From contig JBFGLM010000008.1 of NCBI GenBank assembly GCA_041576165.1, forward strand, positions 1 through 64,000: a stretch of 64,000 nucleotides of DNA, written 5' to 3'. The translations under genes and the position numbers were made by a program. Positions 1,721 through 28,555 of the stretch are shown here, in pieces; within the stretch, counting starts at the first letter, position 1, and each line of letters begins with the position of its first letter. A model generated the notes under the pieces. It did not search any database, had not been told where the DNA came from, and worked only from the letters and a program-made list of their open reading frames with translations. Source of the stretch: Acidimicrobiia bacterium (GTDB lineage: Bacteria > Actinomycetota > Acidimicrobiia > Spongiisociales > Spongiisociaceae).

Positions 1721-2506
1721 TCAGAACAAGCCGGAGGTAGCTCCCCCGTCAACGCCGATCGCTACACCCTGGATGTGGCGAGCTTCCGGCTTGCACAGAA
1801 ACGCTACGGCTGCGGCCACATCCTCGGGAGTACCCAATCTGCGCACGCCCTGCCGCTCCACAATCCTTTGCTGAAGTTCGTCGGGTGAGGTGCCGGCCGC
1901 TTCGGCCCGAGCCGCCAGCAGGGTCGTGAACCGTTCGGTTCGGGTCTGACCCGGGTGGATGGCATTGACGTTGACATCGTCGCGGAGGCCCTGACCGGCC
2001 AGTGCTTTGGTGAAGTTGGCCAGCGCGGCGTTGACCGCGCCGCCGATCATGATGTCGGGCGCCGGGGTGCGGGCCAGCCCGCCGACGATATTGACGACAG
2101 TGCCGTGTGACGCCACCAGATTGGGCCAGAAGGCCCGGCACACCCGGACGGCCCCGTGGAACTTGAGGGCAAATCCGTCTATCCACGCCTCGTCGTCGAG
2201 TTCCAGGAAGGGACCGGCCTTGGTGGCGCCGGCGTTGTTGATCAGGATGTCGATTGAATCGAATGCCTGGGTGGCGGCCGCGTGCAACGTGGAGACACCT
2301 TCGGCGATCCGCAAATCAACGGCCACGGTCTCGACTCGCCGGCCCGAGTCTGTGCTGATCGACTGAGCCGTTGCGTCGAGGTCTGCCGCGGTGCGGGCCG
2401 CCAAGACCAGATCGGCTCCTTCCGCCGCGAGTCGCCGCGCGATTGCCCGGCCTATTCCCTTGCTCCCTCCCGTGACGATTGCCGTCCTTCCAGCCAGTGC
2501 GCTCAT
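1721..2506 (-). CDS. SDR family oxidoreductase
   Basis: TGGSKGIG, INNAG and C-terminal VDGG motifs; the catalytic Tyr of YxxxK is not evident. Confidence 0.9.
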   Translation of the reverse strand: MSALAGRTAIVTGGSKGIGRAIARRLAAEGADLVLAARTAADLDATAQSISTDSGRRVETVAVDLRIAEGVSTLHAAATQAFDSIDILINNAGATKAGPFLELDDEAWIDGFALKFHGAVRVCRAFWPNLVASHGTVVNIVGGLARTPAPDIMIGGAVNAALANFTKALAGQGLRDDVNVNAIHPGQTRTERFTTLLAARAEAAGTSPDELQQRIVERQGVRRLGTPEDVAAAVAFLCKPEARHIQGVAIGVDGGATSGLF

Positions 2507-2686
2507 TGGGCCACCTCCGTTGAGAGTGACTCAAGCACACGAACGGGCTGCGTGTTGGCAAATGGGTCGGCCGGGACAGCCGTACGTCCGGGTGCAGTCA
2601 ACCCAAGTACTGACTTATGGCCGTGGCGGGCGTTTCGAACCCCCTGATGAAATGGCAGTGAGGCGCAGACGGGAAGCGAGGTTGGT

Positions 2687-3855: not shown

Positions 3856-4164
3856 TCACATCTCGATTGCTTCACGCACTTCGACAGTGCCGCCGGCCGA
3901 GAGATGAGGGCTCGCTTTGGCGAATGCCACCACGTCGTCGATGGAGTCGGCATTGATCAGGCTGTAGCCGTTGAGGCTGGTAGCCGTGTCCGACACCGCG
4001 CCGTCGGCGGACACCGACTTGGCTTGCCCGAGCGGAGCGCCTCCATCGACCAACTTGTCGCCGGCCGAAGCCAGCCACTCGCTCCAAGCCGCCATCACAG
4101 AAGCTTGCTCAGCCTCCGTCTCTGGCATCCCGCCGCCGTGGTACGCGAGCAGGTACTTGGCCAT
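3856..4164 (-). CDS. YciI family protein
   Basis: MAKYLLAYHGG...GYSLINADS...GGTVEVRE pattern; GGAGG RBS. Confidence 0.8.
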   Translation of the reverse strand: MAKYLLAYHGGGMPETEAEQASVMAAWSEWLASAGDKLVDGGAPLGQAKSVSADGAVSDTATSLNGYSLINADSIDDVVAFAKASPHLSAGGTVEVREAIEM

Positions 4165-6522: not shown

Positions 6523-8175
6523 TCATGGGCCGGAAGCGGCGTGGCGGTACACCTCCACGTCAACTGGGGCCAGCGGCGTGTTGCCCAGGATCAAGTCGGC
6601 CGCCTTCTCAGCGATCATCATGACGGGCGCATAGATGTTGCCGTTGGTCACGTAGGGCATGACCGAAGCATCGACAACCCGCAGATTGTCGACGCCGTAG
6701 ACGCGCATCGATCCCGGATCGACCACGGCCACGTCATCTGCGCCCATCCGGGCCGTACACGAGGGGTGCAGGGCCGTCTCTGCATCCCTTTTGACCCATT
6801 CCAGGATTTCTGGGTCCGACTCTACTTCGTGGCCCGGCGACAGCTCGCCGCCGTTGTAGCGGTCGAACGCGGGCTGATTCAGGAGCCGTCGGGCCACCCG
6901 CACGGCCTCGACCCACTCCCAACGATCCTGGTCCGTCGACAGGTAGTTGAACTGCAACGCCGGGTGCACTCTCGGGTCGTCGGACTTGAGCTTGACCGAG
7001 CCGCGTGCGTCGGAGTTCATCGGCCCAACGTGGACCTGGTATCCATGGCCGCCGGCCGGTGATGTGCCGTCATAGCGTATGGCGATCGGCAGGAAGTGGA
7101 ACATCAGGTTGGGATACGCGACCTCTTCGTTGCTCCGTACGAATCCGCCCGCCTCGAAGTGATTCGAGGCACCGAGACCGCGACGGCCAAACAACCACTC
7201 CCCTCCGATTATCGGGCGCCGCCACCAGGCAAGACCTGGAGCGATCGAGACCGGCAGCTTCGATCGGTACTGGATGTACACCTCGAGATGGTCCTGGAGG
7301 TTCTCGCCCACGCCGGGGACGTCGGCGACGGGTCTGATGCCCAACGCCTTCAGCTCGACGGCGTTGCCAACACCCGAAAGCTGCAACAACTGGGGCGAGT
7401 TGATCGCCCCCCCGCATAGGATCACCTCCCCGGCGGTCACCGTGTGGGACCGGCCGCGGTGCTCGTAGTCGACCCCGGTAGCACGGGGTCCGTCAAACCG
7501 AATGCGGGTTGTGAATGCTCGGGTCCTGACCTCTAGGTTGGGCCGGCGGATCACAGGGCGGAGATACGCCACCGACGCGCTGTGTCGCCGGCCGCGGGAG
7601 ATGTTGCGGTCGAATGCGGCGAAACCCTCCTGCTTGTAGCCGTTGACGTCATCGGTGAGGTCGTATCCCGCCTGCTGGACTGCTTCGAAAAAGGCATCGA
7701 ACAGCGGATTGGTGGCCGGCCCCCGCTCGAGAATCAGTGGTCCTTCGCCACCGCGGTACTCGTCGGCTCCGGCGAGGCACGTCTCCATCCGCTTGAAGTA
7801 GGGCAGACAGTGGGCATAATCCCAGGCCTCCATGCCGGAATCTCGCGCCCACTTGTCGTAGTCCATCGGGTTGCCACGTTGGAAGATCATGCCATTGATG
7901 CTGCTCGACCCGCCGAGCACCTTGCCCCGGGCGTGATAGATGCGCCGTCCGTTCATGCACGGCTCGGGCTCGGACTCGTAGCGCCAGTCGTAGAAACGGC
8001 TTCCGATCGGAAAGGCCAGCGCGGCCGGCATGTGGATGAATACGTCCCAGCGGTAGTCCGGGCGACCGGCCTCCAGCACCAGGACGCGGGTGGCCCGGTC
8101 GGCGCTCAGCCGGTTGGCCAGCACGCATCCGGCGGAACCCCCGCCCACGATCACAAAGTCGAATCGGTCCGTCAC
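6523..8175 (-). CDS. betA: Choline dehydrogenase (GMC oxidoreductase)
   Basis: [44 protein letters not shown] and TNGNIYAP motifs; GTG start overlaps the merR stop. Confidence 0.9.
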
Positions 8176-8606
8176 GGGTGCGCCGCCACCGTCTCGTTTC
8201 TTGGCGGCGGACTTTCGATCACGTGGCACACGCAGGTATCCGGCCATGCGTCGGTCACGTTGGCGGCTGCGGTTTGCAGGTGGCCGAGCTCGGCCCGAAG
8301 GCGCTGCAGGTCTTCGATGCGTCTGTCGATCGCAGCCGCCTCTCTCGCCATCGAGTTGCGCACCGTGGCGCACGGCGCCTTCCCCTCAGTGCGAAGGCCC
8401 ACGATCTCGCGAATGTCGTCCAGCGGCAGCCCCAGCGAGCGCAACCGCCTGACGAAGCGCAGTAGGTCGACTTCATCGCGGCCGTAATCGCGATAACCGG
8501 CCGTGGTTCGACAGGGCGGGGGGGTCACGCCGTTTGATTCGTAGAAGCGTATGGCCGAAGCCTCCAGGCCTGAGAGTCGGGCAGCTTCTCCGATGCGCAC
8601 AGTCAC
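8172..8606 (-). CDS. MerR-family heavy-metal-responsive regulator
   Basis: [24 protein letters not shown]; Cys in APCATV plus C-terminal TCVCH. Confidence 0.9.
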
Positions 8607-8629
8607 CTCCGTGATCGGCCGGATCCTAA

Positions 8630-8650
8630 ACCTTCTAGCAGATTCAAGGT
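8630..8650 (-). promoter_or_regulatory. MerR/CueR-type operator upstream of the merR gene
   Basis: ACCTTGA-N7-AGAAGGT dyad followed by -10 TAGGAT; resembles the 9483-9503 site; -35 is weak. Confidence 0.65.
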
Positions 8651-9468
8651 AGGGGGATACCAGTCATCTGCGGAGCGACTGAGATGAAGAAGAACCAGCC
8701 TCCCACGACCACCATGACCCAGCCGCTCCATCGCTTCACGGCGGGGCCGGCCATACGAAGAGGTTGGATGGCGTCCGCTGCGAGCCGCGGCACTGCCACG
8801 GCTGCCACCACCAGAAGCGCCGCAAACACCATGGCGGCGGTGGCAAACGCCCAAGCTGTCGCGACCGGGCCGGAAACGAGGCTCTGTGAGGCCAGACCGG
8901 CCAGCAGCGGCCCCGTTCACCCGAACCCGATCAGCAGGTAGGCGGCCCCATAGAGAAAATCCCGACTCCCAAGGCTCCGATGGCGCATCATGTCGAGGCG
9001 GGAGCCGGCCGCACCTGCGATCCGGTCGAGCCATGAGCCGCCAGCCAGCAGGCGACCGGCCTGGCGCAGTCCCAGCAGAACCAGAAACGTTCCGACTGCG
9101 ATCCGAAACGCCCTGCCGGCGCTGGATTCCGACCCGACGATGTTTCCCGCGGCTAATCCGCCCGCGACGAAGATGACTGTTATCGCGCCGAATGTGACGG
9201 TCACGCCGGCGGCGATTCGTGCGACGCGAGCCGCCGAGCCCGAGCCGCTCGGCGGCCGAGCGAGGATGGTCAGCAGCAGGGGGAACGAGCAGGGGGAGAA
9301 GAATGCTCCGAACCCAGTGGCAGCCGCCAACACCATGGCGCCGCCCGCGGCGTCGCCACCTGGAACGCTGCGGGAGGCGATGAATCCGGCCAGCCCGGCC
9401 AGCAGCACACCGCCGGCGACGATCAGGAACCGAATGCGCCCCCGGCGGCGTTGCGTGAGGTCGTCCAT
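8644..9468 (-). CDS. CcdA/DsbD-beta-like membrane protein, predicted selenoprotein (UGA at 8917-8919)
   Basis: First motif FFSPCSFPLL. ORFs 8917..9468 and 8644..8832 are in one frame, separated by a single TGA in IGFG-U-TGPLL, the second catalytic Cys position. A SECIS-like hairpin follows. Confidence 0.78.
8884..8919 (-). promoter_or_regulatory. Putative bacterial SECIS element
   Basis: UGA ACG GGG CCG CUG CUG GCC GGU CUG GCC UCA CAG; GGCC/GGCC stem with GGUCU loop starting at +19, extendable by CUG/CAG pairing. Confidence 0.65.
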
Positions 9469-9475
9469 CTGAGCG

Positions 9476-9506
9476 ACGCTAGACCTTCAAGTCACTGGAA
9501 GGTCAA
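9476..9506 (-). promoter_or_regulatory. MerR-type promoter with 19-bp spacer and operator
   Basis: TTGACC-19 bp-TAGCGT with ACCTTCC-N7-TGAAGGT dyad (9483-9503); ATG lies 7 nt after the -10, so probably leaderless. Confidence 0.85.
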
Positions 9507-9570: not shown

Positions 9571-9633
9571 GCATCCACAGGGCCGCATCTGTGACACTTG
9601 TCCGCAGTTAGCAGACAGTCAGGAGCCCAACCC

Positions 9634-10173
9634 GTGGTGATAGCCAAAAAGTGGAAGGTCGTATCGGGAGGTTTGTCGCTCACCGTCGCCCTCGGCGGCG
9701 GTGCCGCCTGGGCAAATGCCGAGGATGTGACAGTTGAACCCGATGAAACCACCATTCCCACCTTGGCCGATGTGGTCCAGGACAAGTTGACCGAGACGAC
9801 GGTTGTCACCGTCGGCGGTGAGGATGTTCGAGTCAAGATGCCGGGCGATTCGCCGCTGGACCCGCTGACGGTCACGGTTTCGCCTGTGGAGGAGTCGCCA
9901 GTCACGGTTTCGCCTGTGGAGGAGTCGCCAGTCACGGTTTCGCCTGTGGAGGAGTCGCCAGTCACGGTTTCGCCTGTGGAGGAGTCGCCAGTCACGGTTT
10001 CGCCGGTGGAGGAGTCGCCAGTCACGGTTTCGCCGGTGGAGGAGTCGCCAGTCACGGTTTCGCCGGTGGAGGAGTCGCCAGTCACGGTTTCGCCTGTGGA
10101 GGAGTCGCCGAAGACGGTGTCGCCTGCGACAGCAACGCCGGATACCGCATCGCCCGATACATCTGACGACTGA
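9634..10173 (+). CDS. Secreted acidic Ser-Pro repeat protein
   Basis: AGGAG RBS, GTG start; KKWK plus hydrophobic core plus AWA signal; (VTVSPVEESP)x8; ends TPDTASPDTSDD. Confidence 0.85.
   Translation: MVIAKKWKVVSGGLSLTVALGGGAAWANAEDVTVEPDETTIPTLADVVQDKLTETTVVTVGGEDVRVKMPGDSPLDPLTVTVSPVEESPVTVSPVEESPVTVSPVEESPVTVSPVEESPVTVSPVEESPVTVSPVEESPVTVSPVEESPVTVSPVEESPKTVSPATATPDTASPDTSDD
9871..10110 (+). repeat. Coding tandem repeat, 30 bp x 8
   Basis: Unit GTCACGGTTTCGCC(T/G)GTGGAGGAGTCGCCA, contiguous with no spacers; only synonymous differences between units. Confidence 0.98.
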
Positions 10174-11366
10174 TGGCGTTGAGGGCGGTTGACGAACCAG
10201 CCGCCACCGGGGGTTCCCTCGTAGCGGAGCTGCTCGGAGACGGGGCGGTCGATGTGCTCAGCAGTCTCCTCGCGGAGGATGGGCGCACATTGATCTCCGC
10301 TCGTCCCTGGCAGGTCCGCTATCGCCCCCCGGACGCAGTCCGGGTCGTGTACCACGTCGACTGCGAACGTGACGGTCGGGCTGCAACAACGTTCCTTGCG
10401 TTGGAGGCCGGACGTCGATACAAGGGCGGCGTCATCCTCCAGCGAGGATTCGACCAGCTTGTGGCCTGGGAGTATCCCAATGATCCGCGCTTGCCCGGGT
10501 TGGCGAGCATTGTCGAGCGCGAGAAACTGGCACCGATCATCGCTCAGGTCGGCTTCGACCAGGAAATCGTCTCGATCCGCGTCCGTTCCTACCGGGCGAG
10601 CAAACGCGCCGTCGCCGAGGTCACGGGCACGACCAAGCGGGTGTTCGTCAAGGCCGTGAGACCGTCGGCCGCGGAGGAACTGCAACGTCGACACGTGGAA
10701 CTCACCCCGTATCTACCGGTGCCGCACAGTCTGGGATGGTCTGAGGAGCTCGGGATCGTCATCCTGGAAGCGTTGCCGGGCCGGACTCTACGCGACGCCC
10801 TTGCTGATGGGGGACCGGCGGGAGTCGATGTCCGGCCGCTTATTGCAGCTTTGGACCGACTCCCGCCGGCAAGCTCTGATGCGCCGTCAGCGCACGATCC
10901 ATTGGCGGCTACGAGCTCGTATGCCCGCCTGGTTGCCAACGCCACACCCGAGCTAGCACACCTCGCTGGGGAGATCGCCGAGAGGTCGCAGCGGCTCGAT
11001 CGAACCGCTGATCGATGGGTTCACGGCGACTTCCATCTGGCCCAGGTGATGGTCGGCGCTGAGGGAATGACTGGAATCGTCGATGTCGATCGGGCGGGCG
11101 CCGGTGACCCGCGCGACGACCTGGCGACCCTCATTGCCCATGCCCACAGTACGGCACTCGGTGTGACGAACCCCGCGCCCGTAGCCGAGCTCGGGCAGCA
11201 GGCGCTGGCGGTCGCCGAGGACCGCTACGACCGCGACGATATCCGGACGCGCGTTGCGGCGGTGATGCTCGGTTTCGCCGTAGGACCCTTCTCCTCGTAC
11301 GCCGAGGATTGGAGGAGCGACTTGAAAATCAAGCTGGCGGCGGCCTGTGAATGGCTCCCCGCATGA
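10173..11366 (+). CDS. APH/choline-kinase-fold phosphotransferase with N-terminal extension
   Basis: VFVK, VHGDFHLAQV and IVDVD motifs; DPRLPGL motif; TGATG coupling to the upstream gene. Confidence 0.88.
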   Translation: MALRAVDEPAATGGSLVAELLGDGAVDVLSSLLAEDGRTLISARPWQVRYRPPDAVRVVYHVDCERDGRAATTFLALEAGRRYKGGVILQRGFDQLVAWEYPNDPRLPGLASIVEREKLAPIIAQVGFDQEIVSIRVRSYRASKRAVAEVTGTTKRVFVKAVRPSAAEELQRRHVELTPYLPVPHSLGWSEELGIVILEALPGRTLRDALADGGPAGVDVRPLIAALDRLPPASSDAPSAHDPLAATSSYARLVANATPELAHLAGEIAERSQRLDRTADRWVHGDFHLAQVMVGAEGMTGIVDVDRAGAGDPRDDLATLIAHAHSTALGVTNPAPVAELGQQALAVAEDRYDRDDIRTRVAAVMLGFAVGPFSSYAEDWRSDLKIKLAAACEWLPA

Positions 11367-26591: not shown

Positions 26592-28043
26592 CTAGTCCCT
26601 GATCGGGCGTGTAACCATCATGCTGCCGCGGGGGCCTCTCGCCCAGGTGGATATGATCCCGCTGAACAGGCCGGCGTCGCTTCCTACTCGCACCAGCGAT
26701 AGACCGTCGGGAGGGAATTTGGCGATCGGCCTCTCCGCCGGGCCGCTGAGCTTGTGGGCTGCTTCCAGAGTGAGGCCCTCTGCCATGCCGTCCGCCCCAC
26801 GCAGGCGATCGGCGGCCGGGCTTTCAGTGAGCTCCAGTATTCGCGCCAGGGTGTGGTGCTTCGACCAACCCCCGTGCACGAAGACCCGCATGTGCTCTGG
26901 TGACATTGCGATGAGGGCGTCGAACGCCATCGCCAGTTTGGGATGCCCCACCGTCTGCAGCGTTCTGGCGAAGGTGCGGGCCAGCGACTCGGGTTCCCGC
27001 GACAGCTGATCAACCACCGGGGTCGGCCCCTGTCCGGCGATGACCGTGACGGCACTGGCACCTGGCGGAACACCTCGGTCGGTGGCCAGCGACGGCCACG
27101 GGGAGTCCTCCTCGCGTTCGGCCACACACAACCCCCACTTGGCCGGGTGGCCCATGGTCGAGCGGTCGACCCCACCGGGGACTGCGCCCCCGATATTGCG
27201 GACGACCAGGTTTACCGCCCGGCCGATCGTGGCATTGGCCCGGTTGCCTGGCCCGAATGCGTTGTATGTCGAGTTCATACCGATGCGAGAGGCGATCGGT
27301 CCGTTCACGATGATCACCGGGCCAGAGAAGAAGGTCGTAGCGGCGACGCCGTGCATGTTGAACTCGTCGGTACAGATCGCCTCGATCGCAGTAATCACCA
27401 CCGGCAGGTACTCGGGCCGGCACCCTGCCATCACTGCATTGACCGCAATCTTTTCCACGGTGGCTGGGGCGTAGTTGGGCGGAACGTCGGCGATCTGCGT
27501 TTGTGGGGCCAGCTTCGTTCCGCTCAGCATGTGGTCCACGCGCTGCGGAGTGGGCGGGATCAGGGGGAGTCCGTCCGACCAGCCGCGCGCGAACATCGCT
27601 TCGAACTCGTCCTCGTCGGATCCGAGCTCGATACGGCGTGAAGTCAGGTCGGCGCCGCTCTCGCCGGCGAGTCTCCTCTGCACCGCCGGGTCCATCGTCA
27701 TGCTGCCGCAGCCGGGACGGTGCGGTGGCAGGTTGGCACCGAGGTCGGGCCGGTCGGTGTGACGCCTCCATTCATCTCGGTTCCAGCCGAAGGTGAGCTC
27801 AACGGCTTCTCCGTCGGTGATGCGATACAACGTCGGAGTCACCTGCGTTCCCAGGTTCCAGGAGATGGCCAGATCCTCATCGTGCACCACCGTCATGCCG
27901 GACGGGAATTCGGGATCGTCTTGGGAGACAACCGTCAAGCCGGCAGACTCCAGTTCTGCGAGCGCCGGCACGATCTCCACGCAGGTCTCACAGTCGTGCT
28001 TGACGACGGCAACCAGCCCGTCGCTCAGGCCGTGACCGGTCAT
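26592..28043 (-). CDS. Thioredoxin-like CxxC domain fused to the domain associated with UGSC proteins
   Basis: KHDCETC, PGCGS, WSDGLPLIPPT, NAVMAGC, GNRANATIGRA; ATGA overlap with the upstream UGSC gene. Confidence 0.8.
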   Translation of the reverse strand: MTGHGLSDGLVAVVKHDCETCVEIVPALAELESAGLTVVSQDDPEFPSGMTVVHDEDLAISWNLGTQVTPTLYRITDGEAVELTFGWNRDEWRRHTDRPDLGANLPPHRPGCGSMTMDPAVQRRLAGESGADLTSRRIELGSDEDEFEAMFARGWSDGLPLIPPTPQRVDHMLSGTKLAPQTQIADVPPNYAPATVEKIAVNAVMAGCRPEYLPVVITAIEAICTDEFNMHGVAATTFFSGPVIIVNGPIASRIGMNSTYNAFGPGNRANATIGRAVNLVVRNIGGAVPGGVDRSTMGHPAKWGLCVAEREEDSPWPSLATDRGVPPGASAVTVIAGQGPTPVVDQLSREPESLARTFARTLQTVGHPKLAMAFDALIAMSPEHMRVFVHGGWSKHHTLARILELTESPAADRLRGADGMAEGLTLEAAHKLSGPAERPIAKFPPDGLSLVRVGSDAGLFSGIISTWARGPRGSMMVTRPIRD

Positions 28044-28555
28044 TGGGTCAATGCCGCGACGATCGCTTCGACACTTTCGTGGGCCAAGGTCCGCAGTTCC
28101 TCGTCGGTGCGGTCCTGAATCGGGTGCGGCAGCCACACAACGGCGGGATCGACGCCAAGGGCGTTGGCCTGCGCCTCACGCGCGCTTGTGAACGGCTCAG
28201 TGGCGACGAAAACGGACGGTATACCCCGCTCTTCGAGATCGGCGACGTCGTGCACACTGCACGACACGCACGAGCCTCAGTCGGCCAGGGCTTCGATCAC
28301 CGCCCCGCAGTTCGCCGCGATCTCCGCTCTGAGGTCCGCGGGGGCGGGCTTGGCATGGGTGGGTTTGGTGTACCGGACGATCTGAGCTCCCCGGGCCGTG
28401 AGCAGGGGACCCAGGGCGTCGAGGTAGACGTTTCCCCGGGGCTTGGAGATATCGAGCAGGCCGATCCGGGCGTCTGCAATGGACGTCAGCCGTGCGGCGG
28501 GGGCGCGAGTAGCGGCGGCGGTCTCCGCGGTGGGGTCGAGTAAGACGCGTTCCAT
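28040..28555 (-). CDS. UGSC-family selenoprotein (UGA at 28277-28279)
   Basis: ALAD-TGA-GSCVSC; the two ORF halves are in frame; SECIS-like hairpin present. Confidence 0.88.
28241..28279 (-). promoter_or_regulatory. Putative bacterial SECIS element
   Basis: Perfect 8-bp stem GUCGUGCA-GUG-UGCACGAC with loop G at +20 after UGA. Confidence 0.75.

Follow-up and report, generated by a model that had tools for sequence, protein, structure and literature searches.

The question raised by this locus is whether a single in-frame TGA, in a gene read on the minus strand of the window (by which we mean the whole stretch of DNA that was analysed, 64,000 nucleotides long), ends one protein and leaves a second fragment behind it, or encodes a selenocysteine (Sec) within a membrane protein and, if so, what such a protein might do. 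The preliminary description of this DNA opted for Sec, proposing a hidden selenoprotein of the CcdA/DsbD type that standard pipelines would split or mistake for a pseudogene. Its reading of the frame was accurate: one TGA, in GFG-TGA-TGPLL, is all that interrupts it, and read-through gives a protein of 274 aa whose first motif is SPCSFP (Table 1). Its forecast about annotation also came true, as standard gene calling reports the 183-aa upstream piece only, and databases store both fragments as separate proteins. The read-through product has no match in Pfam or NCBIfam, and no Rfam family reaches its gathering threshold in the window. Nearby, on the plus strand (9598-10173), lies a gene whose product looks secreted and repeats VTVSPVEESP about nine times in tandem.

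Table 1. Features of the locus and a second selenoprotein gene, with positions in the window.
Feature	Position	Strand	Remarks
Predicted CcdA/DsbD-TM-like selenoprotein gene	8644..9468	minus	274 aa; predicted six-helix core of CcdA type, preceded by an additional membrane helix at the N-terminus
Cys60 codon in FFSPCSFP	9289..9291	minus	First CcdA active-site position; invariant in family alignment; aligns with FLSPC of 5VKV
In-frame TGA, codon 184, read as Sec184 (GFG-U-TGPLL)	8917..8919	minus	Second CcdA active-site position
SECIS upper hairpin	8889..8903	minus	nt 17-31 (U of UGA = 1); fdhF-type, with GGUCU as the loop on a 5-bp stem
MerR-family promoter/operator	9476..9506	minus	TTGACC, 19-bp spacer with ACCTT-N11-AAGGT dyad, TAGCGT
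Second operator copy, over the selenoprotein stop codon and ahead of merR	8623..8652	minus	-35 degenerate here, intact in relatives
MerR-family regulator	8172..8606	minus	144 aa; Cys79, Cys125, Cys127 (C-terminal CxC); Pfam MerR_1 and MerR-DNA-bind
UGSC-family selenoprotein gene	28040-28555	minus	TGA 28277-28279; NF041046 141 bits vs cut-off 125; hairpin z -2.05; known family

Homologues speak first to the nature of the TGA. Protein searches returned 181 of them besides the query, of which 82 end exactly at residue 183 (judged from their protein records, not their DNA), 67 have Cys184, one has Trp and three, with frame problems, another residue; the remaining 28 leave the site uncovered. The protein with Trp at the Sec position (P0157) is fused to an HMA domain and has lost Cys60, and is possibly a decayed copy. 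For DNA, 168 loci were fetched, a sample biased toward close relatives (eight from relatives, the window being one of these; from GTDB, the best 80 among 168 confirmed matches; and from metagenomes, the best 80 among 303), and codon 184 is TGA in 164, TGC or TGT in four and TAA or TAG in none. After merging at 95% identity, TGA stands in 125 of 128 loci and a Cys codon in three, a conservation that, judged from these sequences, is far above chance. Behind the TGA, 120/124 loci keep the frame open for 87-94 codons (90 in the window), and beyond the hairpin the sequences diverge with a third-position bias (0.36/0.24/0.57 by codon position). The TGA is thus no peculiarity of one strain, being conserved across phyla, and the residue aligned with it in homologues that read through is Cys. 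Among the GTDB matches, the named hosts are mostly Acidimicrobiia and Chloroflexota metagenome-assembled genomes (MAGs), and the host of the window is itself probably an acidimicrobiian. The family is well delimited: its profile gives the window protein 228 bits and generic CcdA homologues at most 123, and in a sample of 401 genomes from the phylum it has 11 matches above 220 bits (ten with one TGA and one without), the next being at 123 bits. Genomes G043; G111, G156, G196, G227 and G440 (unpublished) count in the relative and phylum totals only, none of them being a family match. The metagenome matches came from an alignment-based scan, a single-protein pattern scan of the metagenomes giving none, and a tblastn search of plasmids with two family members found no relative.

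The RNA behind the TGA is constrained as well. The preliminary description had likened the GGUCUG at +19 to that of the Escherichia coli fdhF SECIS, and comparison of the two sequences gave the same offset, GGTCTG starting 19 nt after the TGA in both. Codons +6 to +8 are frozen, with GCC for 119 of 121 Ala, GGT for 123 of 124 Gly and CTG for 124 of 125 Leu; upstream in the same genes, these codons are used at 40%, 22% and 40%, respectively. In 37 sequences hand-picked for diversity, 97.8% of cells in the stem (nt 17-21/27-31) are paired and double changes number 17; none of 500 shuffles scored as high. The wobble pair 18-30 is Watson-Crick in 102/125 loci, where 44.5 were expected, and its mutual information (1.02) is the highest of all third-position pairs in these 125 loci, the next being 0.46. 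In the 5.1-Mb genome, TGA-N15 followed by the 11-nt core occurs twice only, in this gene and in a formate-dehydrogenase-like (FdhA-like) UHAP gene on contig C58. The GGCC/GGCC stem proposed earlier is therefore upheld by covariation, although the hairpin is missing from the minimum-energy fold of the window sequence taken by itself (z -0.17). The folding z of E. coli fdhF is likewise not significant, which is why covariation is preferred to energy here. The 5-bp stem and the GGUCU loop at +19 also agree with the bacterial SECIS model, which has a stem of 4-16 bp and a loop of 3-9 nt that starts with G, 16-37 nt after the UGA (PMC13188914).

As for the machinery, the genome has selA (two copies), selB (two copies), two genes for tRNA-Sec (selC) and a selD with an in-frame TGA of its own, although with 7.5% contamination the duplicate sel genes may not all belong to it. 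The two selA-selB pairs (C24:55512-58621 and C100:605-3619) and the two tRNA-Sec genes (C1:33378 and C145:1292) could reflect either duplication or contamination of the bin. That this genome decodes Sec had been deduced from a second Sec gene in the window; the deduction was sound, and the second gene is a member of the UGSC family, above the cut-off of its NF041046 model (Table 1). Across genomes, selA is found in 49/50 genomes with the family (50 of the 80 GTDB loci) but also in 58/61 relatives, so its co-occurrence has little power.

A true stop or a pseudogene lesion, with two separate fragments being made, is scarcely tenable: it could draw on the separate database entries for the two fragments, on the hairpin missing from the minimum-energy fold and on a 98%-complete genome (G039) that has the TGA form with no match to selA or selB, but that genome has tRNA-Sec and a Sec-form selD, the site holds TGA or Cys codons and never TAA or TAG, the long open frame diverges at third positions, and the hairpin covaries. 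A genome-wide reassignment of TGA to Trp was rejected, the gene and its neighbours ending in TGA and the aligned residue being Cys. We therefore regard it as almost certain that UGA184 is decoded as Sec through an fdhF-type SECIS, which would yield a protein of CcdA fold with a Cys60 (TM1)/Sec184 (TM4) pair, that is, the hidden selenoprotein with Sec at the second catalytic site that had been proposed.

The CcdA fold itself was approached by profile and by structure. Searched against the PDB, the full-length family profile has one match, CcdA of Thermus thermophilus (5VKV, E 7.4e-9), in which Cys60 falls on the Cys of FLSPC and Sec184 on that of WTPCIGPIL; a profile of the N-terminal part only has no PDB match. 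The Pfam domain DsbD_TM (PF02683) is matched by 17/44 members. For the predicted structure (pLDDT 83.8), 5VKV is again the top Foldseek match (probability 0.98, E 0.083, TM 0.40/0.47), and in VIA-align it reaches Z 6.3 over 181 residues with an rmsd of 5.1, at rank 21, the best Z (7.5) going to unrelated helical proteins. CcdA has been described as a six-helix elevator in which the TM1 and TM4 cysteines move by about 12 Å (PMC7329351). From the positive-inside charge bias, the N-terminus of the family protein would be cytoplasmic.

A possible history of Sec in this fold is suggested by a FastTree tree of 143 rows (approximately every second locus, full-length Cys homologues and 17 generic CcdA, with a midpoint root). 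All 62 Sec rows lie inside one group of 73 with support 100, which has Chloroflexota at its base, and the 11 Cys rows of this group fall into six nested lineages. The simplest reading would be one origin of Sec followed by several reversions. Those Cys loci for which DNA is available keep GGT at codon +7, as expected of recent reversions. In Cys relatives, the motif C-x-G-P-x-x-A-G-L already spells the peptide encoded by an fdhF-type SECIS, which suggests that the switch from Cys to Sec could arise easily. The approximately six later reversions offer natural Sec/Cys pairs for comparison.

The promoter provides the first clue to function. Upstream of the selenoprotein gene, and together with a MerR-family gene, stand the -35 and -10 elements and the 19-bp spacer with its dyad of a MerR-regulated gene, nearly identical in sequence to the E. 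coli copA promoter, with which it was compared. The -10 and the ATG are 7 nt apart, which makes a leaderless mRNA probable. A promoter with a 19-bp spacer lies directly upstream in 47/110 loci (spacers of 17 or 18 bp in none, of 20 bp in 14), and the coding control gave 0/110. Of the three perfect dyads in the genome, two lie around the selenoprotein gene, and a dyad is present at the place of the second operator, ahead of merR, in 18/124 loci. The third perfect operator (C59, approximately 4060-4091, minus strand) precedes a truncated merR remnant. These elements strongly indicate, as far as DNA sequence goes, that expression of the selenoprotein is turned on through a metal sensor of the MerR family, and the product of the adjacent MerR-family gene is the likely activator. 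This regulator falls below the cut-offs of the NCBIfam CueR, CadR, ZntR and MerR models alike, CueR being the best. It has Cys at the position-79 site, which we take to be the mark of divalent-ion sensors, the corresponding residue of CueR presumably being Ser.

The neighbourhood points the same way. For the 55 loci whose flanks are both at least 1.4 kb long, the genes found within 1.5 kb encode MerR (23 loci), the DF thioredoxin-like protein (nine), HMA domains (eight), a double-Sec rhodanese-CBS protein (eight), MerB (seven), MerA (four) and TlpA (four), and 33/55 have at least one of MerR, MerA, MerB or HMA. Generic CcdA loci differ on both counts, with TlpA beside 17/19 and MerR beside 0/19, and no TlpA gene lies beside the gene in the window. 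Within 2 kb, in 128 loci, there are nine MerB, five MerA and one P1B ATPase. In three loci (L018, L024 and L032) the family gene adjoins a merA on the same strand with a C-terminal CC pair, and 11/182 aligned proteins are fused to an HMA domain, N-terminally in ten. The pattern is not uniform, in that neither the promoter nor a metal gene is seen in 15/65 loci with flanks of at least 1 kb. On another contig of this genome (C84), a merB of canonical motif and arsR are found with the same operator ahead of DF and rhodanese genes, in an order that is also seen around the family gene in L103. Gene content agrees in part: a MerB-domain gene is present in 7/7 relatives with the family and 10/54 others, and MerA in 4/7 and 6/54, respectively. 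In the 50 other family genomes, a MerB-domain match is found in 27 (many such matches being TGA-containing MerB-like proteins rather than canonical MerB) and MerA scores over its cut-off in nine, against a background of 10/61. Hence 41/50 family genomes have no MerA over the cut-off, although MerA may be undercounted since these are mostly incomplete MAGs (and kin, not independent), and this 96.5%-complete genome gave no MerA match.

Several genes, some of them neighbours of family members, are unusual in their own right. The rhodanese-CBS genes have two in-frame TGA (Y-U-HDGL-U-DMS), are split by gene callers and lie under the same operator (L214:2346-3122 on C84 of this genome, G000; G000 C86, approximately 10273-10953; L009:2342-3037); roughly a dozen loci have this motif unchanged, and none of the NCBIfam models is matched above its cut-off. 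MerB-like proteins with a TGA in WWDD-x-x-x-T-U-x-T (G000 C42, approximately 9975-10400; L225; L226) are common in the host's order, and with a motif that differs from the CU of SaoL they may be a further selenoprotein subfamily. Beside one family gene (L056:3206-4564, plus strand) is a flavoprotein resembling MerA and lipoamide dehydrogenase, whose redox CxxxxC has TGA in place of its first Cys codon (GGA-U-VNEGC) and which lacks a C-terminal CC, and similar matches with one TGA occur in G037, G066 and G092. Another family gene adjoins an HMA domain with MH-U-AGC (L081, approximately 2458-2649, plus strand).

What, then, would a Sec-bearing CcdA do under a metal sensor? The preliminary description had offered a Cys/Sec transmembrane shuttle of either electrons or metal. 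The promoter, the flanking genes and the fused domains connect the gene with a heavy-metal regulon and not with the making of cytochrome c, and they are compatible with either cargo. Our tentative preference, held with somewhat less than even confidence, is for a Cys/Sec CcdA-type elevator that exports Hg-type ions under MerR-type control, in which substrate, direction and cargo are all read from genomic context. The CcdA elevator would have been repurposed so that (i) a soft metal ion is gripped between Cys and Sec, Hg(II) or an organomercurial being the likeliest and Cd, Ag or Cu possible, (ii) the ion is taken from a cytoplasmic donor, which could be an HMA domain, MerB or low-molecular thiols, and (iii) it is released on the outer face, the protein being mainly an exporter. 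Selenium would raise both the affinity of capture and the rate of exchange. HMA domains fused at the N-terminus suggest that metal is handed over and, together with the scarcity of exported thioredoxins, favour metal over electrons as cargo, and the usual lack of MerA makes export preferable to import. Against metal export, a retained CcdA Cys pair with a Sec substitution is the usual signature of redox chemistry, and the DF thioredoxin-like protein is a frequent neighbour (9/55); against mercury in particular, the operator resembles a CueR box. The 15/65 loci with neither promoter nor metal gene also count against this reading, as does a MerB-domain match in no more than 27/50 family genomes, and very tight Hg-Se binding could hinder release.

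The close rival, nearly as likely as metal export and in our view a serious possibility, would keep the chemistry of CcdA proper: a thiol/selenol-disulfide elevator that, during metal stress, passes electrons outward from the cytoplasmic thioredoxin-like DF protein, the electrons serving the repair or recycling of thiols in the envelope or of a metal trap. It would explain why both CcdA active-site positions are kept and why DF and double-Sec rhodanese genes share the regulon, and it has parallels in TsoB, where a UxxxxU rhodanese and a DsbD-like domain are joined in one protein, and in the CcdA-thioredoxin sets found in ars operons (PMC2963123). However, an exported thioredoxin that could act as acceptor is missing from the surroundings of 51/55 loci, Gly stands in place of the Pro that precedes the second Cys in CcdA, HMA domains are fused at the N-terminus, and the genome has two other, ordinary CcdA-like genes.

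That the protein replaces MerT and imports Hg(II) for a cytoplasmic HMA domain and MerA is improbable. Such a role would suit the loci where the family gene adjoins merA, the enrichment of MerA in family-bearing relatives and the actinomycete CcdA-domain proteins that are annotated (by annotation only) as mercury transporters in Table 4 of PMC12195606, but import would be harmful to cells that have no reductase, and MerA gave no match in this genome and, counted over its cut-off, is about as frequent in the family genomes, mostly incomplete MAGs, as in the background. More improbable still is membership of a copper/silver regulon, moving or reducing Cu(I) or Ag(I), for which the near match to the copA CueR box, the best (if sub-threshold) score of the regulator and the CopZ-like domains and Cu-type P1B ATPases near some loci would speak, since this regulator and nearly all adjacent ones keep Cys at the position-79 site and MerB and MerA outnumber P1B ATPases within 2 kb.

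Returning to export of Hg-type ions, a narrower version can be drawn, in which the Sec-armed elevator exports Hg(II), including that released by MerB, from cells without mercuric reductase. We hold it to be unlikely in this full form, and yet it would have consequences. About half of the genomes with merB are reported to have no merA, the fate of Hg(II) in them being called unexplained (PMC8261052), and such an exporter would be one answer to this puzzle, offering Acidimicrobiia and Chloroflexota a route of mercury detoxification that is independent of MerA. More generally, if mercury is what is moved, the family bears on the survival of organisms with MerB only and on mercury-selenium cycling in sediments.

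Whatever its cargo, the family is apparently uncatalogued, a member of the CcdA/DsbD superfamily that is probably under heavy-metal control. It is absent from Table 1 of a 2026 catalogue of 119 families (PMC13188914), where TsoB, with UxxxxU, is the only DsbD entry, and NCBIfam release 20 has no model for it. The texts on deep-Sep (PMC12013277) and BSepDB (PMC13326102) mention neither DsbD nor cytochrome, although their supplements could list the family, CcdA/DsbD is not mentioned in the Haft and Gwadz preprint or the Actinomarina preprint, and a literature search on selenoproteins with CcdA, cytochrome c biogenesis or DsbD found no paper on it. The family adds a selenoprotein whose Sec lies in the active site that the CcdA/DsbD fold holds within the membrane, a location absent from that table of 119 families, and it corrects a systematic split in annotation, seen in the 82/181 homologues that end exactly before Sec. 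As its SECIS matches that of E. coli, a laboratory strain should be a suitable host for work on the gene.

How does the family compare with known systems? With CcdA (5VKV) it shares both Cys sites, which align, and the SPC of the first. It differs in having (i) Sec at the second site, in GxG-U (GFG-U in the window) instead of after Pro, (ii) an extra N-terminal helix, a MerR-type promoter and occasional HMA fusions and (iii) a TlpA/ResA-type partner in only 4/55 loci, as opposed to 17/19 for generic CcdA. TsoB (NF045694) is likewise a selenoprotein with a DsbD-like domain, and its profile is matched weakly by 7/86 family members, with a best E of 7e-8 and scores well short of the cut-off (805), while the window protein gives no match. 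A further link is that the UxxxxU rhodanese, a frequent neighbour of the family, matches the rhodanese region of TsoB. However, TsoB is a rhodanese-DsbD-thioredoxin fusion whose two Sec lie in UxxxxU, filed as a rhodanese form in the catalogue table (PMC13188914), whereas the Sec of the family is in the membrane domain.

Catalogued membrane selenoproteins from heavy-metal contexts also have Sec in a membrane protein, but their folds and motifs differ, and the membrane domain of the family matches none of their profiles; nor does it match any Pfam or NCBIfam model of the Mer transporters MerT, MerC, MerE and MerF. The actinomycete CcdA-domain 'mercury transporters' (Table 4 of PMC12195606), compared here by annotation, are similarly tied to mercury resistance in that annotation, but are Cys forms encoded beside thioredoxin-domain 'mercury transporters'. 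Finally, ArsG (NF040495), an organoarsenical efflux permease described as an efflux transporter (PMC9144182), has a related membrane fold and a role in metalloid efflux, and is among the top feature neighbours in Atlas. Its profile is matched weakly by 2/86 members, far below cut-off (the window protein giving no match), and it differs in its arsenic context and in having no catalogued Sec form. As a distant relative by profile, ArsG would nonetheless be a precedent, by analogy, for efflux through a CcdA-related fold.
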